DNA of 61,107 nucleotides, the filler included, from Nitrospinae bacterium RIFCSPLOWO2_12_FULL_45_22 (GTDB taxonomy: Bacteria > 2-12-FULL-45-22): NCBI GenBank assembly GCA_001803565.1. It is 5 parts of 5 records of this genome, joined end to end, with 100 filler letters (N's around TTAATTAATTAA, not from the genome) between each part and the next. Parts side by side here need not be neighbours in the genome. Positions count along the whole stretch, not along the records: positions 1 to 17,353 come from MHDQ01000048.1; 4 more parts are not named here. One strand, given 5' to 3'. The translations under genes and the position numbers were made by a program. Below the pieces are notes generated by a model. It did not search any database. It was not told the origin of the DNA and saw only the letters and a program-made list of their open reading frames with translations. Position 1 is the first letter of the stretch. Every line of letters begins with the position of its first letter. Shown in pieces: positions 12,274-51,460 of this stretch.

Positions 12274-12520
12274 ATTGTGTAAATGCTTTTTTCCATGTCT
12301 AACGGCCTTAGTGAGAAGGAAAAAAGATAGCTATTATCCGAACTATGAATATCCCAATGTGCCCTGAAGCGTTTTGATTTGCATAGATTAATCAACTCTT
12401 GTAGACTTGCGAATTAAACCAGCCTGATTTTCCAAATTATATTGACCTGGAAAGAGGGGGTTTTTCCGGATTAATCCAGATTTTTTGCAGATTATTCCAG
12501 CGATTAAAATAATGTGGAAA

Positions 12521-12556
12521 GGGAGGAGCACCCGGTGGGTACCGGGGTCTCCTCCC
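12521..12556 (-). terminator. Hairpin just downstream of the transposon operon
   Basis: GGGAGGAG (12521-12528) pairs with CTCCTCCC (12549-12556); the loop holds a variant of the 17-bp insert. Confidence 0.45.
12529..12545 (+). repeat. 17-bp palindromic insert, variant copy
   Basis: CACCCGGTGGGTACCGG. Confidence 0.65.
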
Positions 12557-12565
12557 ACCATAATA

Positions 12566-12928
12566 TTATTCAGCTAAGCTATCCAGGATAGCTAACAGGA
12601 TGGGATAGCAGTAGGGATCTGGAGAGACAAAAGGCTCCTCCGGGATGATATCGGTGGAATAGAGGACGGAGGGGCTAAAGGATTTTACTGAAGAGAATTC
12701 CTTTTGAATTGCATCTAGCAAGGGTTGTTGGTTAGATTCCTCCAGGCAAGTAGCGATCCTTAAGGATGCAGAGAAGGCCTGCTGGAGGGCCTTTAGAGAG
12801 TTGGTAACGGCCTCTGGTGGGCAGGCAGAGGGGAAGCGGGTTTTGAAGACTGCTACCCCCTGGTTATCCAGGGCGACCAGATAGAGGTGGGAATTAGTTT
12901 GTTTAATACCGAGATATAGTTTCATCAT
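12566..12928 (-). CDS. 120-aa hypothetical protein, N-terminus resembling the IS110/RNase H-like first strands
   Basis: AAGGAGG RBS before ATG 12928. MMKLYLGIKQTNSHLYLVALDNQG resembles Y-x-G-I-D...H...L-D-x-x-G with Asp replaced by Lys. Confidence 0.6.
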   Translation of the reverse strand: MMKLYLGIKQTNSHLYLVALDNQGVAVFKTRFPSACPPEAVTNSLKALQQAFSASLRIATCLEESNQQPLLDAIQKEFSSVKSFSPSVLYSTDIIPEEPFVSPDPYCYPILLAILDSLAE

Positions 12929-12950
12929 TCTTCCTCCTTTGGTTAAGGTT

Positions 12951-13760
12951 TCATGATATTTCGGTGACGGCCTCCCGTACATGGTCGCCATCAACAATTT
13001 GACTCTTTTTGCTGGCACAGGCCATAAGGGAGGCCTGGGCCAGGAGGTTAACTTTTCTGGGGATACCTTTGGAGGCCTGATAGATGGCCTCTATAGCCGG
13101 CTCCGAGAAGAGAGGATTAGTAACCCCTACGCGGTTCAGGTAGTGTTTTAGATAAAGAGGTAGTTCTTTACGGGTGAGGCCCTCCAGGTGGTAGCGCATG
13201 ATGATCCTTTGGTTTAAGGGCTCATTGATATTGAGGCCTAGCTTTCTGCGTAGCTCTGCCTGGCCAACCAGGATGAGGGTAAGGTGATCCTGGCTATCCA
13301 TATGGTAGTTGGTGAGGAGCCTGAGCTCCTCCAGGGCCTCTATGCGGAGTAAGTGGCCTTCGTCCACAATCAGGAGAGGAGAGATCTTTTTACTCTCTAC
13401 CATGCGCTCTATCTCCTGGTGTATCTGGATATAGAGTTTGGCCCTGGAGCTTGGGGCAATAAGCCCTAGCAGCTCTGCCAGGGACTTATAGAGATCCAGG
13501 ACACTCCCAGTCGTATTGGGGAAGTAGAGGGGCTTATAGAGGCCTGGGTTAAGGGTGGTGCAGAGGGCCCGGCACCCAGAGGGTACCCGGGTGGTTTTTC
13601 CGCTTCCTACCTCACCGGTTACCAGGCCGATGCCCCTCTTTTTTACCAGGTAATCTAACCTGGTAGAGAGTTCTTTGAAGTGAGAGCTCAGAAAGAGCTC
13701 CTGAGGTGGGATATCTTTAGGGAAGGGTTCACCGGTCATACCGAAATAGGTCTTATACAT
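12951..13760 (-). CDS. ExeA-like AAA+ ATPase (transposition helper)
   Basis: MYKTYFG...PF start, Walker A GEVGSGKT, Walker B LLIVDEGH, LILVGQ, SKGIPRKVN. Confidence 0.92.
   Translation of the reverse strand: MYKTYFGMTGEPFPKDIPPQELFLSSHFKELSTRLDYLVKKRGIGLVTGEVGSGKTTRVPSGCRALCTTLNPGLYKPLYFPNTTGSVLDLYKSLAELLGLIAPSSRAKLYIQIHQEIERMVESKKISPLLIVDEGHLLRIEALEELRLLTNYHMDSQDHLTLILVGQAELRRKLGLNINEPLNQRIIMRYHLEGLTRKELPLYLKHYLNRVGVTNPLFSEPAIEAIYQASKGIPRKVNLLAQASLMACASKKSQIVDGDHVREAVTEIS
13573..13589 (+). repeat. 17-bp palindromic insert in the ATPase gene
   Basis: CACCCAGAGGGTACCCG; encodes RVPSGC after Walker A. Confidence 0.9.
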
Positions 13761-14115
13761 GGTCTTTGTCCTCCTTTCTGGGTTGGTTTTGGTAGTAGTT
13801 TTGGTGTACTAGCTCTACATAGTTGATACCTGATCTTCTGATCTTAAGGGGCGAGGTAGAAGAGACTAGCTCTTTGCTATCATCATCCCTTTTTACGAAG
13901 CAATTTTCGTAGGCCTTGGTGGGGGTAGCGACCTGCTCTAGCTTCCCTTCAAAATAGACCTTTACCTGGGACTTATCCTGGGGGTTGAAGCGGATCTCTA
14001 CCCCTTTGCCAACCAGGTGGGCTGGGGCCTCATATAAGATGCCATCTAGAGAGAAGGTGCGGTCGTTATAGATCTTCCGCTTCATACGGTGGAGGAAGAT
14101 CTCTTCCAGGTCCCT

Positions 14116-14178
14116 GGAGTTTGGGAGTTAGGGAGTTAGGGAGTTGAAAACTCCACAACTCCTGAACTCTACAACTCC
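14116..14178. repeat. Octamer tandem-repeat hairpin inside the transposase
   Basis: Four GGAGTTNG-type units followed by four AACTCYNN-type units. Confidence 0.85.
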
Positions 14179-14255
14179 TCAACCCTACGAGGCGCATCCA
14201 CTTGTCCAGGGGTGTCTCATTGAGGCTGGAGTGGATGGTTCTGTGGTATTCACCT

Positions 14256-14272
14256 CGGGTACCCCCTGGGTG
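14256..14272 (-). repeat. 17-bp palindromic insert in the transposase
   Basis: Minus strand CACCCAGGGGGTACCCG; encodes HPGGTR. Confidence 0.9.
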
Positions 14273-14593
14273 CCAGGCCCAGAGTCTGGAGTTAAGGTCT
14301 TCCAGTCCCTTGATCTTTTCCATATCAAACTGGTTAAGGAACTGCATACGCAATGTCCTGAAAAATCTTTCTGCTTTTCCCTTTCCCTGTGGGACATAGG
14401 CCTTAGAGTGGATAAGGATAATACCCAGACTGGCACAGACTACCTGGAGGTGGTGGCTTCGGTACACTGACCCGTTATCGCAATAAAGCCTTAAGGGCAC
14501 GCCTTTTTTGAGCAGGGCCTGCTTAAAGGCATGCTCAAAGGAGAGCAGCCCCTCATCAAAATAGAACTGGGCATGGGGGACTACCCGAGTGGC

Positions 14594-14610
14594 CGGGTAC
14601 CCTCTGGGTG
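14594..14610 (-). repeat. 17-bp palindromic insert in the transposase
   Basis: Minus strand CACCCAGAGGGTACCCG; encodes PPRGYP. Confidence 0.9.
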
Positions 14611-14821
14611 GGAGGAAGGCATAGAGATAAGTTTTTCTCCTCCTACCGGTTTGAGGGACAAGGATCCTGGGGCCATGGAGGCAATCACTCTGATACAACT
14701 CCCCTGGGTAGGCATATTCAAAATGGCGTCGGTCTTTAGCCGGGCTTTCCTGATGAACCAGTCCTTGATTTACCAAAAGGCGGTGGATGGTGGAAGGAAC
14801 AATCCTTTGGTGAGGGGGTAT

Positions 14822-14838
14822 CGGGTGCCCTATGGGCG
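14822..14838 (-). repeat. 17-bp palindromic insert in the transposase, variant
   Basis: Minus strand CGCCCATAGGGCACCCG; encodes PPIGHP. Confidence 0.8.
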
Positions 14839-15481
14839 GTGCCAGTTCCAACTCCCGGGCGATGATAGTTGCCGAGCGGGAGGGGTTTTCTTCCTTGAGG
14901 GCGATAATAAGCTCGGCCAGCTCCGGAGGAAGGGTCCTGCTCTGTCCCTGATCCGAACGTTCTTTGGGCTTAAGGGCCTCAAAGCCTCCCCGGCGATACC
15001 TGGTCATCCAATCTTTCAGGGTAGCCGAGGCAATGCTGGTCCGGGCGCTATGGGGAAGGGAGTAGGTTTGGCTGACCTTTTCCCTGAGCAGGGCGCTCTT
15101 TTCCCCGGGGCAGAACTCCCGGCTGAAGAACTCTGAAATTACACCGAACCTGAACAATGCGATGTCATCCTGCTTCTTTTCATCCATGATAAACCTCCTT
15201 GAGAAAAAGGGTTAAATGATAAAAACGATCCCATCGATTATGGGGGTCAGGGTAGCATCCCTTGCTAGCCCATGCTATGCAAGATCTGTGTGGGTGGTTG
15301 CGGTGAGATCTGGCCTGGCATTTGGTGGGTTGGATTAATTTGAAAAAAAAGGGTAGAAATCCCCCTTCCCAGGAGAAAAATTAGAGGGTTAGAGGAAAGG
15401 TCCTGGTCGTATCAGCCTTTGAGGAAGCAAAGAAAATGGAGTTTAAACGTTCCTACAGGGTAACGGATTTAAGTGTGGTTG

Positions 15482-15505
15482 CCTGTCTGCCAAGGCACAG
15501 GCAGG
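15482..15505. repeat. 24-bp imperfect palindrome
   Basis: CCTGTCTGCCAAGGCACAGGCAGG. Confidence 0.6.
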
Positions 15506-15523
15506 AAGGAAAAGACTCGTTGG

Positions 15524-16081
15524 TCAGAGTAATGCTCGATAGAAATGGAGGGAAAAATATTGGTTAGTAGCCGCAAAGAGTTGGCCACTATCCTGGGCCA
15601 GACCAAAGAAGAGGGAGAGATGCTGGAATATGTTCAGAGTCTTTTTCATCCCTTTGAGGGGCAAAGCCCCTCTGATCCTGGAGATCTTTTTCTGCCAGCG
15701 TTTACACCAATACTGAGCCCGTTGATAAGAGATATCTGGGCGGCCAATGGCTTCATTACACCCTTTATAGGTTTTCCCCTGGCTACGGTGCCAGAGAAAG
15801 CTCTCCACCACTTGCACAGGTTTACCAATACCCTGGCAGAGAAAAGTGGGCAAGAGAGCAAAGGTACTGGCACCCATGGGGTACCCGGCTTTGCAAAGCG
15901 AACGTTTTATCCAAACTACCAGTTGCCCACACCATCGGCTATAAAAGCCATGCCCAATGACCTCATTCCCTCTTCGGCAGTTAGGGCAGAGATCTATCTT
16001 GGGAAAGTGGTTATATTTTCCTTGCGCCGCATAATCCTTGACAGAGATACCAAAATCGTATACGATCATCCTTGGTTGCAA
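15524..16081 (-). CDS. DUF6431-like zinc-ribbon/HTH protein
   Basis: CPNC...GHGFYSR...IKRSLCK...TFALLPTFL; located upstream of the DDE integrase. Confidence 0.75.
   Translation of the reverse strand: MQPRMIVYDFGISVKDYAAQGKYNHFPKIDLCPNCRRGNEVIGHGFYSRWCGQLVVWIKRSLCKAGYPMGASTFALLPTFLCQGIGKPVQVVESFLWHRSQGKTYKGCNEAIGRPDISYQRAQYWCKRWQKKISRIRGALPLKGMKKTLNIFQHLSLFFGLAQDSGQLFAATNQYFSLHFYRALL
15871..15887 (+). repeat. 17-bp palindromic insert in the DUF6431 gene
   Basis: CACCCATGGGGTACCCG; encodes GYPMG. Confidence 0.9.
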
Positions 16082-16297
16082 GGGGCCCTTGAAGACATTC
16101 TTTGCAGGATTAGCACATCTAATCCCGAGCAGTCTTCAAGGGCTTTGCTGTTTATAGGGGATCTTTCTGAATAAATTGGCTCTTTTTTATATCACAAGGC
16201 TGGATGATTGTGAATAAATTTTAGGGATTCTGGATAAAATAATTACTGGGGTTACAGGTGGGAGGTCAGGCCGTTCGACCCTCCTTGGCTCTGTGCA

Positions 16298-17353: not shown

Positions 17354-17397
17354 NNNNNNNNNNNNNNNNNNNNNNNNNNNNNNNNNNNNNNNNNNNN

Positions 17398-17409
17398 TTA
17401 ATTAATTAA
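17398..17409. other. Artificial contig linker
   Basis: TTAATTAATTAA (stops in all six frames) between N runs. Confidence 0.95.
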
Positions 17410-17454
17410 NNNNNNNNNNNNNNNNNNNNNNNNNNNNNNNNNNNNNNNNNNNNA

Positions 17455-20400
17455 GACAACATATTTACTATTCGATTCTACAAACCCAGAATTGAAGGGT
17501 TGTTTGCCCGGATTGAAAGGTGGACTCATAAAACTACGGGTGAGATTAAATGGCGGGTAATCACCAAAGAGAACGTAACCACTCTTTTTGGCTGGAGCAT
17601 CAATTCCAGGATTGCCGACCCCAGGGATGCCAATAAAATATTTGAATGGCTGCCTGAATTTATCTTTGACGACAAAGGCAATTGCACTCATTACATCTAT
17701 AAGAAAGAAGACGACAAAGGATTTAACCCTTCTCTGTTGCACAATAGAAACCGCACTGAAAACGGAAATATTACTTACACCAATCTGTATTTAGAAAAGG
17801 TGCTATACGGCAACAAAACGCCTTACAAAGTTTTCACCGACCCGTTCCCCCCTGAAACAGATTACCTTTTCCAAACGGTATTTGATTACGGAGAGTATGA
17901 CACTAACGCCCCATATAACAAAATAAAAGATTGGGATTTCAGAATTGATGCTTTTTCAGAATACAAATCCGGCTTTGAAATAAGAACCACACGACTCTGC
18001 AAAAGGGTTGTGCTGTTTCACTATTTTACGGAACTTCCCGGCGGCTCGGCTTTGGTAAAATCCCTCAACTTTGCATACGACACTTCAACCGAAGAAGATT
18101 TTACCTTCTTAAAATCCATCACCGCCTATGGATATATTAAGAAAGCCGATGGGACCTATACAAATAAAAATCTTCCTTCTACCGAATTTGGATATCAGAA
18201 ACACGAGTGGAACAAAGATGTCAAATCCATTTCACCGGATGCTCTGGTTCATGCGCCTACCGGATTGGATGAGCCGCTATATCAATTCACTGATTTATTT
18301 AGCGAGGGGCTCTCCGGAATATTAACCGAACAGGCCGATGGCTGGTATTACAAGCACAATCTGGGTGATGGCAAATTTGAGCAGGCAAAATTAGTTTCTC
18401 CTAAACCCTCTTTTGCCGGTTTGGGCNNNNNNNNNNNNNNNNNNNNNNNNNNNNNNNNNATGAGAACGAATGGCAGCCATTCCGTACTTTTGAAAGCCTT
18501 CCAAATATTGATTTGGGTAATGCCAATACCCGTATGTTTGACCTGAATGGTGACGGCATGCCTGATGTTTTAATAACCGAAGATAATGTCTTTACATGGT
18601 ATGAATCTGCTGGTAGAAAAGGTTTTACGCAGGTTTATAAAACGCCTAAATCTTTTGATGAGGAGAAAGGCCCGCATCTTGTATTTGCCGACCCCAAACA
18701 AGCCATCTTTCTGGCAGATATGTCAGGCGATGGCATGACGGATATTGTCCGCATTCGCAATGGAGAGATTTGCTATTGGCCCAACATAGGTTATGGCAGG
18801 TTCGGCGCTAAAGTCAGTATGGACAATGCCCCTGTTTTTGACCATCCTGATTCTTTCAATCCTGCCTATTTGAGATTAGCCGATATTGACGGCTCAGGCA
18901 CTACGGATATTATCTACCTGGGCAAAAACAGATTCAGTTGCTGGAAAAATTTGAGCGGCAATTGTTTCAGCTCCACAGCCTTTGAGATAGATGCCTTCCC
19001 GGAGATACACAATCAATCCAAAATAACGGTAACCGATCTGCTTGGCAATGGCGTAGCCTGCATAGTATGGTCCAGCAATCTAACTAAGGATGCAACTGCC
19101 CCTTTAAAATACATAGACCTGATGAACAGCAAAAAACCGCACATCATGGTCTCTTATAAAAATAATCTGGGCAAAGAGGTAACCCTTGAATACACACCTT
19201 CCACCAGGTTTTATATTGAAGACAAGTTGGCAGGAAAACCATGGGTTACCAAACTGCATTTTCCGGTGCATTGCATATCCAGAACCGAAACCAGAGACAG
19301 GATTTCAGGCTATCGCTTTGTGAGTTCCTATAAATACCACCACGGCTACTATGACCATGCCGAACGGGAGTTCAGGGGTTTTGGCATGGTGGAGCAAACA
19401 GATGCGGAAGACTTTGACCATTGGGTAAAGGGCAATGCCAGTAATATTGTAGATAAAACCCTTCATCAAGAACCTGTCACTACAAAATCCTGGTTTCATA
19501 CCGGGGCATTTTTAAGCAAGGAAAAAATACTCAACCAGTTTGCACATGAATACTGGTATGAAGAAATGGACCGGCAGGGCTTTGCAGTGGTCAATCATGA
19601 ACAGCCTTTGCCCGATGCCCGGCTTATCGCTGCCCCGGGATTAGGTGCATCCATCATAGACCACCTCAGCGCAGAAGAATGGCGGGAAGCCCTTCGGGCT
19701 TGTAAAAGTATGGCATTGCGTTCAGAGGTATTTGCAAAGGATGCCCCGCTTGTTGGCGCTACACCTGCTCAACGTCAGAAAGAATTAACCCCCTATTCCG
19801 TTGCCACGCATAATTGCGTCATTGAACTCCTGCAACCCAAAGGCAAAAACAAACACGCTATTTTTGCAGTGAAGGAAAGCGAAGCCATCACCTACAGCTA
19901 CGAGCGAAACACCGAAGACCCACGCATTGCCCACAACCTGAATATAAAATTAGACGAATATGGAAATGTATTGGAATCGGCCGCTGTTGTATATCCGAGA
20001 ATGTTGGCAGATGCTGCATTGCCTGCTGAGACACAACAAGCTCAAAATACTACTGCCATTATTTATACCCAAAATCATTTTACCAATGATGTGATAAGTG
20101 ATGATGAATACCGTTTGCGGTTGCCATCAGAAGTAAAAACCTTCGAATTGAAGGGTGTGACTAAAGCCAATCCTTTATACTCACTAAATGATTTTGAGAA
20201 TATCCTTACGGCTGCCAATGAAGCAGATTATCACCAGATAGATGCCAATCCTGCCCCCGGAACTTCTCAGAAAAGATTAATCGAGCATATACGAAATATC
20301 TTTTATAAAAATGACCTTACCGGCGCTTTAGCCTTACATCAGTTGGAATCATTGGCGCTGCCTTTTGAAAGCTATCAATTGGCTTATACCCCAGCCCTTA

Positions 20401-23400
20401 TTGCCGATATTTTTGGCGCAAAGGTTAATGCAGCCCTGATGTTGGAAGGTAAATTCACACACAGTGAGGGAGATGACAATTGGTGGATACGTTCGGGAAC
20501 TACTCAGTTTATTCAAGGCACTGAAACGGCTGCGGATGCACAAGGCCGGTTTTACATTCCGGTATCCTATAACGATCCCTATGGTGCTGTTACCAATGTA
20601 GAATACGATGCCTATTTCTTATCACTAAGGGTAACAACGGATGCATTAGGAAATAAGATTACAGGAAAGGTAAATTACAGAACCCTTTTACCAAGATGGT
20701 TAAAAGACCAAAATGCAAATATTTCCGAGGCGCTATACAATGAGCTAGGATTTCTCAAAGCCCTTGCTATCGAGGGCAAAGACAATAATAATGATGAAAT
20801 TGGAGATCAGGCAGATGACCTGCTTGGTCTAACAGAACATGAAACCATATCGGAATCGGGACAATTGTTCTCGTTTTTCAATTCTGCGAAAAAATTTAGA
20901 TATAAACTAGTTGATCTAGATGCAGAAAAGTTATTGGGAAACGCCACTGTTCGTTTTGTATATGATTTTGATGTTTATAAAAATTCTGGTAAACCAGCGA
21001 TTGTGGTTTCAATAGCCAGGGAAACTCATCACAAGAAGCCTGACGGTTCTACTAACAGTTCAAGTCTTATCCAACTCAGTTTTGAATATTCAAACGGCCT
21101 TGGGCAGGTGGTAATGAAGAAAGTGCAGGCCGAGCCTGGAGTTGCATTAATAAGTAACGGCGATGGAACATCATCAGAAGTAGATACCACTCCATATCTC
21201 AGGTGGATTGGTAATGGCAGAACCATTCTCAACAATAAAGGGAATCCTGTTAAACAGTATGAACCTTATTTTTCGACAAATCATAAATACGAAGATGAGA
21301 AAGAATTACTAGAAATAGGCGTTCCGACGCTAATGTATTATGATGCTCCGGGGCGGCTCATCAAAACCGAAATGCCGGATAGGACATTTTCAAAAACTGA
21401 ATTTGACTCATGGAAGCAAAGCATCTATGATCCCAACGATACCATTTTAGAGTCTTCATGGTATCACAATCGCACCAACCGCCTGATAGACGCTGAACTG
21501 ATCGCCGAAGGCAAAGACCCCGTTAAAGAAAAAATTGCCGCGGACAAAGCTGCCAAGCATGCTAATACGCCTAATGTTCAGCACTTTGACACTTTGGGGA
21601 GGCCTGTATTATTCATTGATCACAATAAAAACATAAGCACTGATGCAGATGAATTTTACCATACTAAAGTAAAATTAGACACTGAAGGCAACCTGCGAGG
21701 CGTAACCGATGCACGGGGCAATGTGGTGATGCAACACAAATACGATATGCTGGGCAATAAAGTATATCAAAACAGCATGGATGCCGGACAGAGATGGCTG
21801 CTGGTCAATATCCTCGGAAACCCCTTACGCACATTGGATGAGCGCAATCATGAGTTTCAATATTTTTACGACATCGTGCACCGACCTACGCAAAGCAAAG
21901 TATTAGGTGGCGATGGCGATACCCCGCTTGACCATATTTTTGACAGAATATTTTACGGAGAAACAGAGCCTAATCCTGAACTGAAAAACCTCAGAGGGCA
22001 GATTGTAAGACACTACGACACCGGAGGACTAATAGAAACACCTGAATACGACTTCAAAGGTCAACCCAAATCAATCACCAGAAAATTATTTAAACATTAC
22101 AAAGCCGTAGCCAATTGGATAGATGCCAATCTGGTAAATGACTTAGAAACAGAAAGCTTTACTTTCATCACAGAAATAGACGCCCTCGGCAGAGTTACAA
22201 GACAAACCGCTCCTGACGAAAGTATCACCACACCTTCATATAACGAAGCAGGTTTGCTCAATAGCGAAAGCGTGACCCATGCTGACCCCGCTATTACCAC
22301 TACCTATATCAAGGATATTGACTACAACGAAAAAGGGCAGCGCAATAAAATCATCTATGGTAATGATGTCATTACTAAATTTTATTACGATAAAGAGACC
22401 TTCCGGCTCAAACGATTAGAAACCAAAAGGCAAAACAATGAGGTCTTGCAAGATTTATACTATACCTACGATCCTGTTGGAAATATTATTACCATAGAAG
22501 ACGAAGCTATTCCTATTAGTTTTTTTGCCAATTCACTTATAGAGCCTTTAAGCGAATACACCTATGATGCCCTCTACCGCCTGAGAGAAGCCACTGGTAG
22601 GGAAAACAATGCCGCATTAACTTTCAATAGCAAAGACAACTGGAATGATGCTGCCTTTATGCACCAGTTGAACCCCGGCGACCCAATGGCAATGAGGAAT
22701 TATACACAACAATATCAATACGATGGTGTGGGAAATATCTTACAAATGCGGCATCTATCAGCCGGTAGCAACTGGACAAGAGACTACAATTATCAAGCAG
22801 CGAACAACCGGTTAATCAGCACACAGGTTGGAGCAAATACCTACACCTACCCACACCATGCACAACACGGCTTTATGACCGCCATGCCGCATTTGGAAGA
22901 GATGGGCTGGAACTTTAAAGAAGAACTAATAAAAACCATACGCCAAAAACGCACCGATGGCGGCACACCTGAAACCACTTATTACCAATACGATGGGCAA
23001 GGGCAACGGATAAGAAAAATAACAGAAAACCAGGCTGACGCTGGCTTTACTACAACCAAAAAAGAAGAACGGATATATATCGCGGGCTATGAACTTTATA
23101 AACAACACAGCGGCACAGATGCCGGATTAGAGCGCACCAGCCTGAGCCTGATGGATAAACAGCACCGTTTTGTGATGATAGATACCGAGACTAAACCCAG
23201 GGTGGTATTGGGTATACCTATGGGGCGAACCAGCCCAGACCAAACTGTACGCTACCAGCTCCACAACCATCTCGGTTCGGCATCGTTGGAGTTGGATGAT
23301 GCAGCACGGGTCATCAGCTACGAAGAATACCATCCCTACGGCACCACTGCTTACCAGGCTAAAAACTCCGCCATAAAATCCGCCGCCAAGCGTTATCGAT

Positions 23401-24512
23401 ATACGGGCATGGAGAGGGATGAAGAAAGTGGGTTGGAATACCACGGGGCGCGGTATTATGCACCTTGGTTGGGCAGGTGGATAAGTGCAGACCGAGCGGG
23501 ATTTGTGGATGGTGCAAATCTTTATTCGTTTGTCAGAAGTAATCCGGTAGTGCGCAATGATCCGACTGGGCGTGCCAGCGAGCCGAAACGACAAGTCCAG
23601 AGGTACGATGTTGATGCACATGGGAAATTCGAAGGCACTGAACGACATGGTGGCAAGAACCTACAATCTCACCACCCCATCCAGGACAAATTCTCTGAGC
23701 AGAACATCGCAGGCTACGACAGGAATAAGGCACCAGGTCATCTATTAGAGACAGGGTCAGGTGAAGAACATACGATTATTTCTAACGAGCAGCGAAAGCA
23801 ATCTCCATCGGGCAAAGACAGTGGAATTAAGAGTTGGGACGAAAAAAGCTACTCTCGAGCAAGAGAAGAGGCAGTACGTCAATATGAAAAAGCGGGGCTG
23901 ATTGACGAGCAAAAGAAGGGGGTAAAGGCTCTGATGGAGTCCGATTCCTATCATTTCGGCTTGAACGATACGGTGTCCAAAGATGCGAGCGGAAAAAACG
24001 TGGTCAACAAGAACGCCAGATTGCTTGAAAATATGGACATCAAGTCGCCCATTACGGATAAAGATATGGCCGGGGTCGATTTTGACAAAGCATTCGCCGA
24101 TGATCCGGCACCCGGGTTCAGCGGGAAGCCGAAGGACATTCTCGAAGTGAGTTCGGAAAGGGCCAAAGAGCTAGCAAAGGCCGGAGAAGCAGCCGGAGAA
24201 AAAGGCGCTAAAGAAGCGCCGGGCATGTTAGCCAAATTTGCCAAAGGTGCCGGCGAAGTTCTCGTAAAGAAAGGTGGAAAGGTAATTCCCTTCGCAGGTA
24301 CGGCAGTCGGTGTTGGGCTTGCTGCAAACGAGGCTTATGCTGGGAATTATGCCGCAGCATTTGTTGAAGCCGCTGGTGCATCGGAGATACCCATCGTCGC
24401 TCAAGTGGCGGATGTCGGAAGTCTGGCGGCCGACATTGGTTGGGTAGCCAAAGATGTCCTCGACCCAGAGCGGAAACTGGAGGACTGGTACTACCGTACG
24501 TTCCTCAAGTGA
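17455..24512 (+). CDS. Tc toxin TcB-TcC fusion (SpvB/FG-GAP/midN-midC/RHS core plus variable toxin tip), 5'-truncated, internal N gap at 18427-18459
   Basis: SpvB-like FARIERW...FEIRTTRLC; FG-GAP-like DLNGDG, DMSGDG, DIDGSG; EREFRGFG; PVKQYEPYFS; RHS core YAPWLGRWISAD...NPVVRNDPTG. The post-gap frame (ENEWQPFRTF) joins the 18513 ORF. Confidence 0.93.
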
Positions 24513-24632
24513 CGTAACGCACACCTGAGGGAGGAGCAATGGGAGACAGACCACGATGGGAAGACAAGGGGTCAAATCTTTTAAAATGACAAATATTCCC
24601 ACTGGTTTTGCATATTTACTTAAAGACAACCA

Positions 24633-24884
24633 GGGTAGGCTTGCCCTGCCCTATACCCATAAATAATGCTGAACAATTAATTCCATGTTTGCTATGCTGT
24701 AGCCAGGTAGGGTAGGCATTGCCTACCATTTATTTTGATTTATGTGGGTAATTTGTGCGGATGTGGAATGGGTAAAATGTATGGGAATGTATTGACAACG
24801 AACGGTTTATTGTAATGGTGGGACATGCTTGCCTTTCCTCATAATTATTGATGGGTTTGATTTGGCAGGCGATGCCTGCCCTAC
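24633..24884. repeat. GTAG-type REP palindromes upstream of RAYT
   Basis: GTAGGGTAGGCATTGCCTACC (24707-24727), inverted GGCAGGCGATGCCTGCCCTAC (24864-24884), degenerate copy at 24633-24654. Confidence 0.8.
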
Positions 24885-24915
24885 AAAAATATTGCATGGA
24901 TAGAAATATACAAAC

Positions 24916-25464
24916 ATGCCTAACTATCGGAGGGTACGTATACCGGGTGTAACCTATTTCTTTACGGTTGTTACTTACAAACGGCGAAAAATCCTGACGA
25001 TGCCGGAGAGCAGGCAAATTCTGCGTGCCATGATTAACGAGGTGCGGCAACAACGTCCATTCACGATTTGTGGATGGGTGCTTCTACCTGATCATATCCA
25101 TTGTATATGGACTCTTCCGGAAAATGATGACGATTATTCCAAACGCTGGGGCTTGATTAAGGCAGGGTTCTCCAAAAAGGCTAAGGAGATGTTTCATCGG
25201 GAAAACTGGATGAGCGACTCAAAACAAAAATACCGGGAAGCAACGATCTGGCAAAGACGGTTTTGGGAACACATGATTCGTGATGAAGATGATTTCAGGC
25301 GACACATGGACTATCTGCATTTTAATCCGGTAAAGCATGGATTAGTTAAATGCGTGAAGGATTGGCCATATTCCACGTTTCACCGGTGTGTGGCAAATGG
25401 TACATACCCCTAGGATTGGGGTGGTGATGGGAAAGACAGCATGGATGAGGATTTTGGCGAATGA
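24916..25464 (+). CDS. rayT: REP-associated tyrosine transposase (RAYT) with in-frame TAG at 25411-25413
   Basis: TYFFTVVT, VLLPDHIHCIW (HUH), IWQRRFWEH, YLHFNPVKHG, WPYSTFH; typical DWG...FGE tail continues past the TAG. Confidence 0.9.
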
Positions 25465-25466
25465 GA

Positions 25467-25487
25467 GTAGGGTGGGCATTGCCCACC
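25467..25487 (+). repeat. GTAG-type REP downstream of RAYT
   Basis: GTAGGGTGGGCATTGCCCACC. Confidence 0.85.
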
Positions 25488-25704
25488 ATTATTAGATACA
25501 CACGGCGATAGAGGTAAATGAGGTATATATATGATGTTGATTTTTCCGGACGAAAGATAAGGGTCAGGTCTACACTCTTTACAATGGGAGAGAAATTGAG
25601 GGAAAAGAAATGCTCTTGTTATTGATTTCTTGATTTTGACCTATGGCTGATACAAAGAAACCATAGATGCAATATAAATTTTAAGAGTTACAGAGGGGAA
25701 CATT

Positions 25705-26325
25705 ATGATACCATCATTCAGAACCATACTTGACACCGCCAAAGACCTTGAAAGTCTTTTTGGCAATGTAAAAAACAAGCTGCTCAATAATCCCACAGAA
25801 GCCTCTGCGAAACTGGCTGAGGTGTTGGGAGAGTTAAGCCTGATACTGGAATTTGTAGAAAAGGAAACTGTCCGTTACTTAGAAATCATTTTCTTACCGG
25901 ATAAAAGTAATTTTATCCCATGCAGATCTGCTTTGCTTTCATTGGAAAGCGGTTATGTAACCATCAAAGGTTACGAAGCACGTGGACATTGCCATAAGAT
26001 CATGAACATCTACGAAAGGTATTTGGATCGTTGGTTCAGCAAAGTGCTGGATGCCCAGGAAGCACAGCAAATCAAATCGATGTTTGAACGAATGAACTCT
26101 GCCGATGGAGACATGATTGACGGCATCAAAGAAATCACCCGATGGCTGAAAAATGAATCAGAAGCCATTCTTCAAATGGTGGATGCGGATCAATTGGATA
26201 TGGCAAACCAACAAATTAAATCTGCAAGATTGGCTGTACAGCAAACCCGTAGGGACATAGTAGAAGCATTGGCGCAATTGAAATTGTTGCAAGCGAGTTT
26301 TATTGTTTCTTCACAGACCTTGTAA
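25705..26325 (+). CDS. Hypothetical all-helical protein upstream of the TcA-like gene
   Basis: GAGGGG RBS; 206-aa ORF; no signal peptide; coiled-coil-like C-terminus. Confidence 0.75.
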   Translation: MIPSFRTILDTAKDLESLFGNVKNKLLNNPTEASAKLAEVLGELSLILEFVEKETVRYLEIIFLPDKSNFIPCRSALLSLESGYVTIKGYEARGHCHKIMNIYERYLDRWFSKVLDAQEAQQIKSMFERMNSADGDMIDGIKEITRWLKNESEAILQMVDADQLDMANQQIKSARLAVQQTRRDIVEALAQLKLLQASFIVSSQTL

Positions 26326-26359
26326 TGAATTGAATGAAACGAAATAAAGGAGGGATACA

Positions 26360-29300
26360 ATGGCAAATCAAATTGAAGACCAAAAACCAAACCTCGTTCT
26401 CGGACGGGTGGTTGACAGGCTCAACCGCCCATTGTCAAATCTCATCGTGCAGGCTTATGACCGCGATATGCGTGGCGAGGAGCTATTGGGAGAAAGTATT
26501 ACCGATAGAGAGGGGAAATACGAAATAGCCTGGTCTCATAGCCAGTTGAGTGGCAGGGGTAAAAAAGAAGCGGATATTGTCATTAAGGTATTTACACGGG
26601 AAAAGAAGACCTTGCTCTATGCGTCAGATATGGACAGGATAAGGTTTAATGCCTCGCCAAGGGAAGAGATCAACATCACTATTGAAACGGCAATAGAGCC
26701 CGAAGTGGTAGAGTATGATTACATCTTGAAACAAGTGACTTACTTAGCCGGTAAGGTAGCTATTACCGATTTGCAGGAAAGCAAAGAACACCGTGACATT
26801 ACCTTTCTCTCTAAAGAAGCGGAAATACCCACAGAAAAAATTGAACACCTGGTGGTGGCTCATCGCATGAGTAAGGCATCTAAAATAGATGCTGCCTTTT
26901 TCTATGCCCTGCTCCGTAAAAATACACTGCTGAAAAATGATTTTATTAAATCATTCCATGCAAGATTAATTATTGACATTAATACCGACATACAAACGCT
27001 TCTGTATGATGCAGCATTAGCAGACCCAAAAACCATTCAACGCGATGCGGAGACTGCCGTTAAAGAGATGATCGTTTCTTCCAAAGTTGCCAAAGAATGT
27101 AAGCGAAATGCGGAGCTATTGCAGCAATATAAAAAGAAGGCGGAAGAATACTACAAAAACGAACACCCCCGCAAAGTGCTGAACATCATCAGCCGCTTTG
27201 TGCTTGAAAACAAGATCGATGAGATCGGTAAAATATTTCAGGAAAACAAAAATGACCTTAATCTCTTTCTGCAAAAAATAACAGATGCTTCTTTCTTCAG
27301 CAGCAAAGAAAAAACAACTCAGGCAAAAACGAGCCTTGCCTTAGGAGAATTGTTGGGATTTGATGACCTCATCATCAGCCAGATTAGCGAATCACAAAAA
27401 ATTAAAAGACCGGAGGATGTAAAAAAATTAGCCAAACTGAACAAAGCAGCATGGAAAGATGAATTAACCAAAGCAGCAGGCAAGATAGACCTTGCCGGAA
27501 AGCCCCTGGATAAGAAGATGCTCGATCTTCATGCTTCCTCTATTGTGAGAAAAATGGAAAAGACATATCCCACTATGGCCTTTACCGCACAATTGGAAAG
27601 GGAGAAAAAGCTCATACTGAAAAACCAAAAGGAAATTACCGCCTTTTTATCAAAACACGAGGGTTTTGACTTACAGCATCATAATGTGGACATCTACCTG
27701 AAAGATAAAAAGGTAGCTAAGAAAGAAAGTGAAGCCATTCGGGAAGAATTAAAATCTGTGCAGAGGGTATTTAAATTGGCGCCGCATTACAGCAAAACCA
27801 ATGCACTGCTAAAGGAGAAAATTCACTCCGCACAAAGCATTGCTGCCATAGGCGAAACCCGCTTTGTAAACGAAATTGCCCCAAAAGCAGGCATTAAATC
27901 CGAAGAAGCCAAAATCATTTTCAGGAGGGCAGAAAGAACTAATACAGCCGCCATGCTTATTGTTGGTGAATTGCAGGATACCATGCGGGCTATGGATGTA
28001 CCAGCTTTGGAAATGAAATCGCTTGCCATGAAATTGGAGGCTGTAAGCAAGGATTTCCCCAACCTGAAATCGCTCTTTAAACTCACAGACCTATGTGCCT
28101 GCGAGCATTGCCGTTCGGTATATAGCCCTGCGGCGTATTTGGTAGAAATATTACAGTTTCTGGATAAGAGAAGTGTAGTTGACCTTACTGTTCCTGCACC
28201 ACCGCCGCCGGCAGTTCGTCCTACTGTAAAGATTGCCAAAGATGTATTATTTGAACGTAGACCTGATTTAGGCGAGATTGACTTAAGCTGCGAAAATGCC
28301 AATACTCCTGTTCCTTATATTGACCTGGTGTGTGAACTATTAGAGGCAGCAGTTGCACCTGATGCTGGGATAGATTACACAGGTGTGCTTTCAGATGGAG
28401 CGGATCCGTTGAAAGGTAAAATATCAAATGGCCTGCTCAATACGCTGGTAGCGGCAGGTATGCCCGTAACCGATCAGGCACAGATTTTCGAAACGGAAAC
28501 AACAACGGGATTATCAGACACCTTACCTCATTATTTAAGGGATAAAAAGGCTATTTGCAAAATTATTCACAATGGTGGGAACAATTATACCGTTTTCCGT
28601 TTGCGCCAAACCTTATCCACCGCAGAAGAATTAGCGGCTGCACCTGAGTATGTGAATTCCGATGCTTACAATACTTTAAAAACTGCTAAGTACGCTTTCA
28701 AACTTCCTTTCGATTTATACCATGCGGAGGCAAAAGCCTATTTCACCCGATTTGATATTTCCAGAGACAAGCTTATGGATGATTTTCAATCGGCAGGAAA
28801 TCCGGCTAATGCAGCTATTGCCGCTGAAAAATTGGGATTGACTGATGCAGAAAGACAACTGATTGTAACAACTAAAGACAATTTGATTGACCAGCAATTG
28901 TATTGGAATGCCCCAGACCAGTGGGATACGCCCCCTGTTTCCGGAAATGTTTTGGTTTATATGAAAAGGGTAGATCATTTTCTTGACAAAACAGGACTTA
29001 CATACAAAGAATTGGATTTACTGCCTTCTTTAAAATTCATTGATCCGGCTGATAAGCTTTTCATCGAACACCAATACGATGATCCTAATGCATCTGAAAA
29101 AACGATTTCATGCGATACCACAAAAAAGTATATAGCCAATCTTAATGAAGATACTCTTGATCGCATTCATCGTTTCCTTAGTTTGCAAAAGAAAACAGGC
29201 TGGAAATTTGAAGTATTGGATGAAATTATTTCACAAAGCAAACTTGGCAACGGGCAGTGCAATGATACTTGTTTAATCAAGGCTGCCGATTTGCTAAAAC

Positions 29301-32300
29301 TCTCAGAAGAAACAGGCATCAAGATTGAAGAGTTGGTAGGATTTTATAAAGAAATACCGCATCAGATATTTAAAGAAGATGCTCCAAAACCTCTATACCA
29401 CCAGGTATTCCTGAACAAAGCAAAAAATGGATTTATTGATGAGGGACTATTACCGGAAAAAGTTGATGGCTCTCAATTGTTGAGCAATTTCAAAACCAGC
29501 CTATCTGCTTGCCTGCAAATCAAAGAGCAGGATTTAGATAAGTTATTGCCTCTGCTGCCTGATGACAACCTGACATTTTCCAACCTGAGTTACCTGTTTG
29601 CCGCTTCAAGGCTGATGAAGAAACTGAAGCTTAAAGACGATGATTTCATAATACTTACGGAGCTCACTGGCATAAATATTTCCGATTCACCGGAAAAGAC
29701 TTTGAAGTTCGTTAACGCGGCCAACGACCTGAATAAATCCCCTTTAAAACTCGCCGACGTTAAATTCATGCTCCGACATGAAGCAACCAATCTCGTCGAC
29801 AGAGAAATCAAAGATGAGAAAATCAAACAGGTACTGGAAAAATTGCAGAAAGAGTATCAACGTAATTTTAGCGCCAACAAATCACCTTTCGTTGCCAATT
29901 TATCCGCAGACGAGCAGAAAGAAACATTGCAAACTGCTTTATCCAAACTGAGCGGCATTGGAGAAGAAGATGTAAAGACGTTTATAAAATTCATTGATAG
30001 AGACTGGACATCAGCGAATGATGCAAAGACCTTTACGAATAACAAATTAAATGGCCTGTTTGATACAGCATTGATTAAAGCCAAAATTGATGCTTTGGCA
30101 GCAGCACCAGGCCCTGACATCAGTAATGAACAGAAGGATTTAATCAAGGCCTTCTTAGATTCTATTGCCGCTTATCAGCTTCAAATCGGCAAGCAGTCTA
30201 TTCTTGAACAAACATTAGCAACTGCTTTCAAAGCAGATTTGGAATTGGTAAAGATTGTTCTGAAGCATGCTCAATTAAAACAACCTGCACCGGGTAGTGG
30301 TCTCTTATCTCAGATACTTCTTTCTGATACTTTGATTGATACGGATATAACTCATGTTACGCCTATTTTACCACCCATCACCAATGTTGCTTTTCCCAAT
30401 CAGTATCGTGCCCTCAGGCTGACGCATAAGCTCTTTCCTTTGGTCAATTCTTTTAAATTGGGAAATCAAGAGATAGAGTGGTTTTTCAAGAATAATAAAG
30501 ACTTGAGCTGGTTTGAATGGGATAGCATTCCTTATGAAGCAGGGCAGACAGCGATTGATTATGCCAAATATGCGGCTTTTGCCGGAATGATTGATCTGGC
30601 AAAACAACTTACTCCGGTACCCAATCAGGCAGATGCAGAAAATCCAATTACTTTCTTGTCTGTGGCAGAAATGCTCTTACCGGCTAGCGGTACCATGAGG
30701 AATCAATTTATAGAGGCATTTTCTCTACTGACAGGCTACATCAAAGAAGATGTAGATACTGTTGATGCACATTTATTTCCGGTATTCAACCTAAGCAATT
30801 ACAGCGACGTAAAAACCTGGCAAGCCATTAGTGATTGTGCAGAGCATCTGAGAAAATTAGGCTCAACGGTTGTCCAGGTAAAAGAATATATTAAGCCGGT
30901 TTTAACAAGTACCGATACCCATCTCTTGCGTACAGCCCTGAAAGCCCGCTACGATGAAGACACATGGCTAAGCACACTCAAAGAAATCATGGATGCTATC
31001 CGTCCTCAAAAAAGGGATGCTTTGGTGGCTTATCTGTTAGCTGTACACCCTGAAATGAAAGACGAGAACGATTTGTATGATTATTTCCTGGTAGATGTGG
31101 AAATGGAAGCCTGTATGCCTTCATCCAGAATTGTTCAGGCACATGGAACCATTCAACTTTTTGTGCAGCGTTGTTTGATGGGACTGGAACCGAAAGCAGC
31201 AGCCGATGTAAACAACGATAAAAGCTGGGAGCAATGGAAGTGGATGAAAAATTACCGAGTATGGGAAGCCAACCGCAAGGTGTTCCTGTATCCCGAAAAC
31301 TGGATTGAGGCGGAACTCAGAGACGACAAGTCCTTCTTGTTTACAGAGTTGGAAAATGAGTTGCTTCAAAACGAGCTTAGGGATTTCACTGCAGAAGAAG
31401 CTTTGATCAAATACCTTGAGAAATTAGATAACATCGCATTTCTGGAAGTTATGGCTACATGGTACCAGTCGGATATTAAAACTATGCATGTATTTGCCCG
31501 AACCAAAGGAGGCGACCCTGCCATTTACTATTACAGAAGATTTGAAAAAGAACGCTACTGGACACCCTGGGAAAAAGTGGAATTGGATATAACCGGAGAT
31601 CACCTGTTGGCATTTATCCGAAACAATCGCTTGTGCCTGGCATGGCCTGTTTTCAGTGAAGAGCCTGATCCAAATCCTCAATCTACAGTTCCCAACAGTA
31701 CTCCAGGAACAGTGATTAACAATGACAAACCCAAGCGAAAACTCAAAATCCAGCTTGCCATCAGCGAGTTTGCCAATAAAAAATGGCAACCGAAAAAAAT
31801 ATCTCACGGAGCTATTAATACTCCATCGGGATATGGAAATTATACAACTGAAGATTTACCGAGAGATATATACAATTTAATATACGTTGAAGATTCTGAA
31901 CAAATAAGGATATTTAGTAGAGCAGATAAAATCAATGATACAGACTTTAAATTTGATGGTGCTTTTAACCTTTCAGGGTGTAAAGGATATCCTGAATTGG
32001 TATTTTTAGGGAATTTTTATTTTCCAGATTTCTATCCTGATTTTAATGATACTCAATTAAAATACCAAAGATATATTGAAGCAAATGAATTAGTGGGAGA
32101 TAATTTATCGGTTAAGAACGGAATCTCATTTTTCAGTTTCTATGAAATTTTGGGTAAAACTCCAGGGACATTCAGGTTGTCATATCCGCATCAACTGACC
32201 CAGATTGACCTGGTAGCGTTACTTTTTCAATATTTACTGATGTATGCTTATGGTTCTAATAAAGCATATCTTAGCTATTACGAACGTTTCCTGAAAATTC

Positions 32301-32308
32301 CATTAGGT
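26360..32308 (+). CDS. Tc toxin subunit A-like protein (VRP1-like and neuraminidase-like domains), 3'-truncated
   Basis: CACEHCRSVYSPAAYLVEIL, RRPDL, YDYFLVDVEM, SSRIVQA, QLFVQRCLMGLE, YRVWEANRKVFLYPENW, YYYRR, WTPWEKV. Confidence 0.93.
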
Positions 32309-32352
32309 NNNNNNNNNNNNNNNNNNNNNNNNNNNNNNNNNNNNNNNNNNNN

Positions 32353-32364
32353 TTAATTAATTAA
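32353..32364. other. Artificial contig linker
   Basis: TTAATTAATTAA between N runs. Confidence 0.95.
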
Positions 32365-32409
32365 NNNNNNNNNNNNNNNNNNNNNNNNNNNNNNNNNNNN
32401 NNNNNNNNC

Positions 32410-37602: not shown

Positions 37603-37666
37603 AGCGAACAGTAAGCAGTAAGCGGTGAAGAGTTAACTACTCACTCCTCACGGTTCACTGCTCACT
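37603..37666. repeat. Heptamer tandem-repeat hairpin, intergenic
   Basis: AGTAAGC-type units followed by CTCACTG-type units. Confidence 0.75.
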
Positions 37667-40948: not shown

Positions 40949-41131
40949 GTAACTACTCAGGTAGGCACAAAGGCACAGAGCACCAAAGGCACAAAGTCGA
41001 GAGATCTAAAGAGAATGCTAAGTTCCTATAAGGTATTTACAAAGGGGTGTGTGGACAGGTTGTGTTCTGCATTTCGGTCGTATATAACTTTGTGCCTATG
41101 TGCCTTTGTCTCTTTGTGCCTGAATAGTTAC
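40949..41131. mobile_element. 183-bp MITE with 12-bp TIRs, 8-bp TSD and internal octamer repeats
   Basis: GTAACTACTCAG...CTGAATAGTTAC; GATTGAGC duplicated at 40941-40948 and 41132-41139; GGCACAAA-type repeats in both arms. Confidence 0.85.
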
Positions 41132-41261
41132 GATTGAGCTAGATTTATTAGGAGCTAAATGCATAAGCATTAATTTTTATTTTTTTTTGTTGACATTTCT
41201 TTTATTCTGGTCTACGGNNNNNNNNNNNNNNNNNNNNNNNNNNNNNNNNNNNNNNNNNNNN

Positions 41262-41273
41262 TTAATTAATTAA
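41262..41273. other. Artificial contig linker
   Basis: TTAATTAATTAA between N runs. Confidence 0.95.
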
Positions 41274-41317
41274 NNNNNNNNNNNNNNNNNNNNNNNNNNN
41301 NNNNNNNNNNNNNNNNN

Positions 41318-47005: not shown

Positions 47006-47025
47006 TGCTCACTCCTCACGGCCAC
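46915..47025. repeat. Heptamer tandem-repeat hairpin overlapping the argH end and the lipoprotein start
   Basis: (TAAGCAG)x4 plus TAAGGAG, and opposite arm GCTTACA/GCTCACT/GCTCACT/CCTCACG. Confidence 0.8.
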
Positions 47026-51360: not shown

Positions 51361-51404
51361 NNNNNNNNNNNNNNNNNNNNNNNNNNNNNNNNNNNNNNNN
51401 NNNN

Positions 51405-51416
51405 TTAATTAATTAA
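51405..51416. other. Artificial contig linker
   Basis: TTAATTAATTAA between N runs. Confidence 0.95.
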
Positions 51417-51460
51417 NNNNNNNNNNNNNNNNNNNNNNNNNNNNNNNNNNNNNNNNNNNN

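Follow-up and report, generated by a model that had tools for sequence, protein, structure and literature searches.

The DNA analyzed here is a 61,107-nt stretch from Nitrospinae bacterium RIFCSPLOWO2_12_FULL_45_22 (the window, by which we mean this whole stretch, with positions counted along all of it), and our subject is a 17-nt sequence of the form C-R-CCC-NNN-GGG-Y-ACC-S-G (CRCCCNNNGGGYACCSG) that lies six times within a single Mu/Tn552-like transposon (Table 1). Domain matches to HTH_32, rve (weak), Mu-transpos_C and AAA_22, combined with TG...CA ends, place the element in this group. Its TGT...ACA termini, reading TGTAAC... and ...TCTACA, are intact, no target duplication is seen around them, and contigs from public sequencing runs contribute loose ends from other copies of the element at 12402 and 16244. 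The rve match is weak because the domain is disrupted; in P0003, an intact relative of the transposase, the IS481-type core scores 189 bits, below the 224 cut-off. The genes of the transposon are broken or altered by the 17-mers, which we call cassettes, except that the 150-residue protein is itself cassette-free. The transposase is moreover split, since a 79-nt hairpin of octamer repeats adds 43 nt and shifts the frame.

A pattern scan of the 61 kb returned these six exact matches, in both orientations, where 0.08 were expected, and none of 100 shuffled sequences reached six. As a sequence-only reading of this DNA had claimed, the 17-mer occurs nowhere in the window beyond 12529-15887, and allowing one mismatch added no further match. 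A looser 15-mer with at most two mismatches gave 25 matches against 10.7 expected, 12 of them overlapping the six cassette sites and the remaining 13 being no more than chance would give. A near match at 49644 was rejected as native coding sequence without the flanking letters. Other tripartite families of the form w-N3-rc(w)-w were sought in the window and none was found, and an Rfam scan of it matched 0 families.

Table 1. Cassettes, host transposon and its genes, with positions along the window.
Feature	Position	Strand	Remarks
Transposon, Mu/Tn552-like, 3857 bp	12400..16256	-	homology to L001-L004 and L006 begins and ends here; contains all six cassettes
Terminal hairpin	12521..12556		conserved; arms GGGAGGAG (12521-12528) and CTCCTCCC (12549-12556); loop of 5-7 nt in relatives
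Copy 1, CACCC-GGT-GGGTACCGG	12529..12545	+	loop of the terminal hairpin; non-coding
150-aa protein	12566..13018	-	family search: none found; cassette-free
AAA_22/ExeA-like ATPase, 269 aa	12951..13760	-
Copy 2, loop AGA	13573..13589	+	ATPase, directly after Walker A GKTT; peptide RVPSGC
Transposase, C-terminal part	13753..14085	-	Mu-transpos_C; out of frame with N-terminal part
Transposase, N-terminal part, 373 aa	14066..15187	-	HTH_32, weak rve; IS481-like core
Hairpin of octamer repeats, 79 nt	14110..14188	-	GGAGTTNN x4 / AACTCCNN x4; replaces 36 nt of relatives
Copy 3, loop AGG	14256..14272	-	transposase; WAW-IE-GEYH becomes WAW-HPGGTR-GEYH
Copy 4, loop AGA	14594..14610	-	transposase; PPRGYP in place of conserved D-D of DDE core
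Copy 5, G:C stem variant CGCCC-ATA-GGGCACCCG	14822..14838	-	transposase; ELAGH becomes ELAPPIGHP
CxxC protein, 185 aa	15524..16081	-	family search: none found
Copy 6, loop ATG	15871..15887	+	CxxC protein; second Cys lost, peptide GYPMG

Each cassette consists of a C, a 4-bp stem (RCCC/GGGY) around a 3-nt loop whose first letter is mostly A, and a tail, ACCCG, which reads CGGGT on the opposite strand. Among the six copies in the window, 6 of the 18 loop letters but only 3 of the 84 stem letters differ from AGA and the consensus, making the loop about ten times as variable as the stem. The constant part holds no stop codon in any of its six frames and encodes Pro-x-Gly turns, and the five peptides quoted in the sequence-only reading (RVPSGC, PPRGYP, HPGGTR, PPIGHP and GYPMG) are correct. 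That reading also had the coding copies falling at conserved motifs, which holds for most of the window: the D-D replaced by copy 4 is present as DD in 12 of 12 aligned homologues, and at the position of copy 6 relatives read C-TGC/TGT-T. It does not hold for copy 5, whose site (ELAGH) is in a variable region of the transposase, as the other two transposase sites are not, nor for the copies in housekeeping genes described below, which sit in variable linkers.

Comparison with relatives gives the size of the change at each site. The three transposase inserts are missing from all of twelve homologues (45-83% identity across the full alignment), which read ELAGH--IPP, AFLDDATR and WAW(I/V)EGEYH at these places. 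At the DNA level, all five coding copies are exactly 12 nt longer than the corresponding positions of L001-L004 (~70% identical), and L006 (80% identical) shows the same 12-nt difference at the three sites that it covers; none of these five loci carries a cassette. The only other fetched locus with the motif, L005, is the window's own contig and was not treated as independent. For the non-coding copy 1, the length of the hairpin loop relative to that of relatives is consistent with the same gain.

The replaced bases themselves are seen in sister copies of the transposon (~95% identical) in run X3, one of the groundwater, soil and sediment metagenomes that contain the stretch. These supply two empty alleles in which ATGCC and ATTGA stand for the 17-mer with flanks otherwise matching: at site 2, GCAGAGGGCCCGG-ATGCC-GGTGGTTT, from contig loose ends at 13555 and 13590, and at site 3, contig record 21 (218 nt, spanning 14193-14422), which is without the 12 nt and keeps ATTGA. 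Contigs assembled independently from runs X1, X2, X3 and X5 show the filled alleles again with 0 differences, which rules out the artefact of a single assembly. It is thus established that a constant 17-nt unit is installed with the loss of exactly five target bases and without target duplication, as the sequence-only reading had proposed, and the same rule is repeated in the three genomes G052, G035 and G138 described below. The absence of a target duplication and the loss of five bases also set the cassette apart from insertion sequence (IS) or miniature inverted-repeat transposable element (MITE) insertion, again as had been argued.

The codon phase of the replaced 5-mer varies between sites, and the reading frame is kept because 17 - 5 = 12, not because of codon-aware placement. 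It is equally established that the flanks of cassettes differ widely. The left flanks of sites 2, 3 and 6 (GGGCCCGG, GGGCCTGG and GGTACTGG) have GGNNCYGG in common, which is original sequence and suggests some target preference, and every cassette observed is followed by G or A. At site 2, where the empty allele reads CCGG-ATG-CCGG, the replaced letters are the loop and two nucleotides of the 3' arm of a small hairpin. When each 17-mer is compared with the flanks on its own two sides, the longest match never exceeds what random positions give (null fractions of 0.06-0.71 over the six sites), and we reject an origin by flank-templated (snap-back) copying.

Two relatives of the transposase are of note. 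P0241, a protein variant 97% identical, carries all three inserts and has a different N-terminus. In the lineage of P0006, which is 83% identical, sites 4 and 5 are empty and the protein ends in '...WAWHP'. A loop of the form xTA at site 3 would give a stop after HP, so these two residues suggest that site 3 may be filled in this lineage also. Other family copies (P0247/P0253, P0249, P0254 and P0255) are broken near the catalytic GK-IER motif, P0247 by a 31-nt deletion, and several contigs of the family of at least 4 kb give only the C-terminal open reading frame (ORF), starting MQFLNQ. Transposase relatives were sought in viral contigs and none was found; queries with shorter fragments of the protein gave two distant matches only.

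We then looked for the cassette in 401 Acidobacteriota genomes, with the reversed pattern as control. One of them, G052, has 52 matches (27+25) against 1+0 for its control, and the other 400 have 0-6 each, about the level of the reversed pattern. A stricter pattern, CACCC-ANN-GGGTACCCG, matches in five of the 401, with 45 matches in G052 and one each in G035, G039, G138 and G281; the control gave one in all. G052 is an unpublished genome, on which every statement about it rests, and it is fragmented. The cassette family was not found among sixty relatives of G052 that were searched, and its distribution is therefore patchy. Both stem variants, A:T and G:C, are present in G052 as in the window, and the compensated G:C form of copy 5 recurs there. 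More than half of the copies in G052 (29 of 52, with loop ATA) belong to a 282-bp MITE bounded by inverted ends of 34 bp, where they are found at a distance of 45 nt from one terminus. In the copy of this MITE at L149 1459-1741 these ends are perfect; the MITE is present at many contig ends, and it has deletion variants (L131, L150, L138) and a mini form of ~100 nt (L163).

Most of the remaining copies in G052 sit at the apex of a family of hairpins resembling repetitive extragenic palindromic (REP) sequences, whose 12-nt tag occurs 68 times in the genome against four in the control. Among 35 distinct contexts of this family, 23 are empty and 12 hold a cassette or a decayed cassette, in a single orientation throughout. 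Filled and empty members form pairs in which five loop bases give way to the 17-mer: TGTA|AAGGA|GCGG becomes TGTA|17-mer|GCGG, CGTG|AGGGA|GCGG becomes CGTG|17-mer|GTGG and, at a second position, GAC|CGTGA|GGGAG becomes GAC|17-mer|GGGAG. The cassette also enters itself. In several nested copies CACCC|AGAGG|GTACCCG becomes CACCC|CGCCCAAGGGGCACCCG|GTACCCG, the loop and two 3'-arm bases of one cassette being swapped for a cassette of the G:C variant, with the same geometry as at site 2 of the window. One locus, L165, looks triply nested, and another, L167, is chimeric, its left half coming from a REP and its right half from a MITE, with a cassette at the junction. Hairpin loops, the cassette's own included, are established as favored targets. 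Two contig ends of G052 stop at cassettes within what, from the sequence alone, seems to be a single molybdopterin-oxidoreductase-like gene.

As for protein-coding genes elsewhere, two published genomes provide examples. G035 carries CACCCAGAGGGTACCCG in frame (..PRAAGYPLGAAPI..), giving the peptide AGYPLG, in a gene that we take to be phosphogluco/phosphomannomutase-like, and G138 carries a cassette in frame (..DAAPHPEGTRLGK..), giving HPEGTR, in what is presumably a ribulokinase-like FGGY kinase gene, both names being read from the sequences rather than from a family scan. Exactly four residues are missing there from nine of nine orthologues of each gene in related genomes, and the 12 nt from all orthologues aligned as DNA (five of five for the mutase, two of two for the kinase). 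The idea that cassettes are concentrated on mobile DNA is thus borne out in the window and not elsewhere, where they occupy REP loops, their own loop and linkers of housekeeping genes as well as the MITE. A scan of 151 genomes of G035's family gave five single matches against five in the control, two of them properly paired cassette-type strings. Single, properly paired strings of this type stand in two further Acidobacteriota genomes, at G538:C310:1278-1294 (CACCCAAAGGGTACCCG) and G311:C44:33230-33246 (CGCCCAAGGGGCACCCG).

Viral contigs were scanned as well. Ninety-one stretches match CACCCNNNGGGTACCCG, and in the 91 loci read, with 92 matches, the loops are enriched for an initial A (42 of 92) and for AGA (10 of 92). 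No viral match was counted as a cassette. One group, with AAG/AGG loops in nine contigs, is a native terminator hairpin whose compensated stem variants are of equal length and not the product of insertion. This phage terminator hairpin, GAAAG-CGGGNNCCC-loop-GGGNNCCCG-CTTTC (L056, L076, L247-L262), has many such variants, two of which mimic the cassette by chance.

The explanation that we consider probable, taken as a whole and leaving the class of enzyme aside, is that each 17-mer is a copy of a very small hairpin cassette, neutral to the reading frame, that spreads by cut-and-replace. Beside the five-for-17 replacement itself, the analysis shows that the cassette recurs in unrelated genomes, nests in its own loop, keeps one orientation in REP loops and lies in frame in housekeeping genes. 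An enzyme supplied in trans, presumably working on single-stranded hairpin DNA, would remove exactly five target nucleotides and put in 17, a net gain of 12 that would preserve reading frames; it would prefer exposed hairpin loops, among them the cassette's own, which would produce the nested copies, and would enter coding DNA too. A hairpin-specific single-strand nuclease/transferase of the HUH kind could do this, a suggestion on which we would place rather less weight than on its being wrong. In the window, one transposon copy would have been struck six times. It has lost the catalytic D-D of its core, the stretch following Walker A and the CxxC cysteine, and is therefore dead. Either this transposon is an unusually exposed target or something is directed at it.

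Several observations weigh against this explanation. A general cassette does not account for the density of six per 3.9 kb (about one per 0.6 kb in the transposon, against about one per 90 kb in G052) with zero in the flanking 57 kb. The MITE copies in G052, many of them at contig ends, spread the cassette passively, so that 52 greatly overstates the number of independent events there. Sister copies (11 differences in 218 nt) supplied the empty alleles, which therefore do not represent the same locus; sites 3-6 of the window do not form evident hairpin loops; the 4-bp stem is weak, at -2 to -3 kcal/mol; and the viral terminators show that similar strings arise without insertion. Known HUH transposition, of the IS200/IS605 type, removes no target bases. 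Nor was any enzyme linked to the cassette among the kinds checked, namely REP-associated tyrosine transposases (RAYTs), Ssn nucleases and reverse transcriptases. Pfam and NCBIfam scans of 39 ORFs of the window gave no HUH, reverse-transcriptase or small-nuclease candidate, and the expectation that the enzyme would not be identifiable there stands. G052 has two Y1_Tnp genes (PF01797, RAYT-type) with no motif within their 3.3-kb loci, one of which is flanked by an unrelated 23-nt inverted repeat, and its sole PF01541 (GIY-YIG) match is in a 613-aa frame that, from its length alone, is presumably UvrC; the genome appears to have no Ssn-type gene. A link to RAYT or reverse-transcriptase genes was accordingly not seen in G052; for the RAYT-type genes, the fragmented state of the genome leaves the absence of flanking cassettes unproven.

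The main rival is retro-writing with a fixed second-strand offset, in which a reverse transcriptase and an endonuclease would copy a short RNA template into nicked DNA and a second-strand cut 5 nt away would yield the fixed 5-nt deletion. Target-primed reverse transcription can give small target deletions, and the fixed deletion length, the constant insert, the differing flanks and the excess of variation in the loop all fit such a process. The candidate enzymes fit it less well. Of the four RVT_1 matches in G052, none is flanked by cassettes and one, a broken fragment, lies 1.35 kb from a cassette with no further tie; from their sequences we take these reverse transcriptases to be of the common group II intron-like kind, and G035 carries a cassette without any RVT_1 match. 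The two stem variants, which breed true in two phyla, are explained by copying from existing DNA copies as well as by two RNA templates. We regard retro-writing as unlikely.

A second rival would have a defense-like or transposition-linked process of the host or a competitor scar this transposon, disabling mobile DNA that is repeated or active by writing a hairpin over short stretches of it. In its favor, a single 3.86-kb element holds six cassettes and the 79-nt octamer hairpin, while the 57 kb of chromosome on its flanks hold none, and the residues removed include the D-D, the post-Walker-A segment and the CxxC cysteine. The ending of P0006, from a lineage only 83% identical, further suggests that site 3 may have been struck again. 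That recurrence is drawn from two residues, one of the three transposase sites is in a variable region, the relatives L001-L004 and L006 are free of cassettes, and outside the window the cassette is found in housekeeping genes and REP loops. Such scarring is possible and not favored; we think it quite unlikely. The cassettes might instead have been gained in another, motif-dense genome, from which the dead transposon was later mobilized in trans into its present host. A cassette-rich genome does exist, the transposon ends are intact and sister copies occur in the same samples, but ~95% identical sisters with empty sites are among these, even G052 has nothing like the density required, and no close relative of the window transposase was found in G052, whose best match is 34% identical over part of the protein. 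This history strikes us as very improbable. Finally, excision footprints of a larger transposon or local template-switch repair would explain palindromic sequence and an altered target and are hardly credible, as five target bases are gone with no duplication left, it is the middle that varies and the outer part that is constant (the reverse of a footprint), and matches to the flanks are at random level.

The chromosome around the transposon is ordinary. M48 peptidases border it at one end and a NUDIX gene at the other, with RadA, LysA, ArgH, ScpAB and others farther away; the RadA shares 70% identity with its counterpart in a 'Candidatus Tectomicrobia' metagenome-assembled genome and 63% with Nitrospinota proteins. 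Runs X2 and X5 also contain one arm of the octamer hairpin in different surroundings (loose ends at 14148 and 14186). Inverted pairs of tandem heptamer/octamer arrays also occur between genes at 37609-37666, 40963-41121 and 46915-47019, reading CAGTAAG.../...CTCACTG and AGGCACAA.../...TTGTGCCT around ~90 nt, and may be a repeat class related to this hairpin. Elsewhere, 17500-32356 holds a Tc-toxin-like cluster, interrupted by runs of N, in which a SpvB domain is accompanied by TcdB middle regions that come with RHS repeats and a C-terminal Tox-SHH nuclease domain (1999 aa), and by a 1998-aa protein of the ABC_toxin_N/neuraminidase-like type. Two genes have an unusual architecture: the one at 53273-54475 joins a family-4 uracil-DNA glycosylase to a SocA/Panacea antitoxin-like domain, and the one at 56020-58893 encodes a UvrD-type helicase of 957 aa that ends in a Cas4-like nuclease. 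The N runs at 17354-17453, 32309-32408, 41218-41317 and 51361-51460 each consist of 44 N, 12 bases and 44 N, which looks like masking or scaffolding and not biology.

Very small dispersed hairpin repeats (REP, SDR, RPE) are common, and the hairpin cassette offers an unusually clean handle on how the smallest of them move, with five bases out and 17 in, filled and empty pairs in several genomes, and self-nesting at one defined position, and its patchy distribution across phyla suits a phyletic search for the enzyme. A bolder proposal, which we advance tentatively, is that five bases are swapped for the 17-base hairpin by a DNA-writing activity that is dedicated to this task and moves horizontally. 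The activity would be a single-strand transferase specific to hairpin loops or else a reverse transcriptase using a short template. If this were true, no self-propagating DNA unit described in bacteria would be smaller than the cassette, which nests within its own loop, is made so as to spare reading frames and can accumulate on a transposon and kill it. Its enzyme, if found, would be a natural tool for short, defined, frame-preserving DNA replacements. For annotation, the cassette accounts for unexpected four-residue Pro-Gly inserts in conserved proteins and for contig breaks at these points, and the window provides an example of a transposon inactivated by smaller selfish DNA.

The motif strings had no match in the main text of the papers searched, and searches on small dispersed repeats and in-frame palindromes led to REP sequences, small dispersed repeats (SDRs), Rickettsia palindromic elements (RPEs) and HIP1 only. 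IS200/IS605 elements need two end hairpins and a conserved target tetranucleotide and remove no target bases. The cassette resembles them in its lack of target duplication, hairpin recognition and strand or orientation specificity, and differs in its left flanks, which are not conserved (GG, TA, TG, AC, CC), and in the 5 nt lost. RPEs measure ~100-150 bp, and we know of no fixed target loss at them. As far as the text in which they are cited goes (PMC3733652), they are, like the cassette, palindromic repeats in frame in protein genes that are probably still functional.

SDRs occur inside other repeats and mobile elements, and SDR4-6 of the Nostocaceae, said to have been described by Elhai et al. 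in 2008, are reportedly 21-27 nt long. These 'very small mobile repeated elements' (cited in PMC4390886 and PMC5861425) are very small hairpin modules with no known enzyme and precise insertion points, as the cassette is, and SDR5 is inserted between nt 3 and 4 of HIP1, with no description there of bases being replaced (PMC4390886). The cassette is smaller, at 17 nt, replaces bases and has other hosts, in a lineage near Tectomicrobia/Nitrospinota by RadA and in Acidobacteriota; HIP1 was sought in the window and not found. To our knowledge, Ssn nucleases do not insert DNA. As described by Chenal et al. 2025 (PMC11893778), these GIY-YIG single-strand nucleases and their NTS/SRM hairpin repeats provide a parallel in which a hairpin repeat with an oriented tag is read as single-stranded DNA by a dedicated small nuclease, and a difference in that the NTS is a 30-bp CGTC-tagged hairpin and in that no Ssn-type gene appears in the cassette-rich G052.

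The closest likeness is to the REP/REPIN and RAYT (Y1 HUH) systems, whose intragenic REPs are also on record (PMC3733652, PMC3116915). To judge from the relevant portions of these papers, REPs and the cassette share a short hairpin with a single-stranded tag, dispersed copies with compensated stem variants, in-frame copies in genes and, since REPs are reported nested within other small palindromes (PMC3733652, section 7), a habit of nesting. The cassette is 17 nt with a 4-bp stem where REPs have 20-40 nt, and its tail is ACCCG/CGGGT where the REP tag is GTAG or CGTC. It further replaces exactly five target bases, and the copy-rich G052 has no cassette-flanked RAYT gene. A REP is expected to have many dispersed, mostly extragenic copies; of the 52 matches in G052, 29 are on the MITE and most others within another REP family. 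The cassette therefore departs from each known family that we tried in that family's defining features, while sharing with them the hairpin-and-tag architecture, nesting and in-frame copies; it is a real and recurrent sequence, no artefact, and adds to dispersed hairpin DNA a new and very small form marked by a defined five-for-17 replacement.

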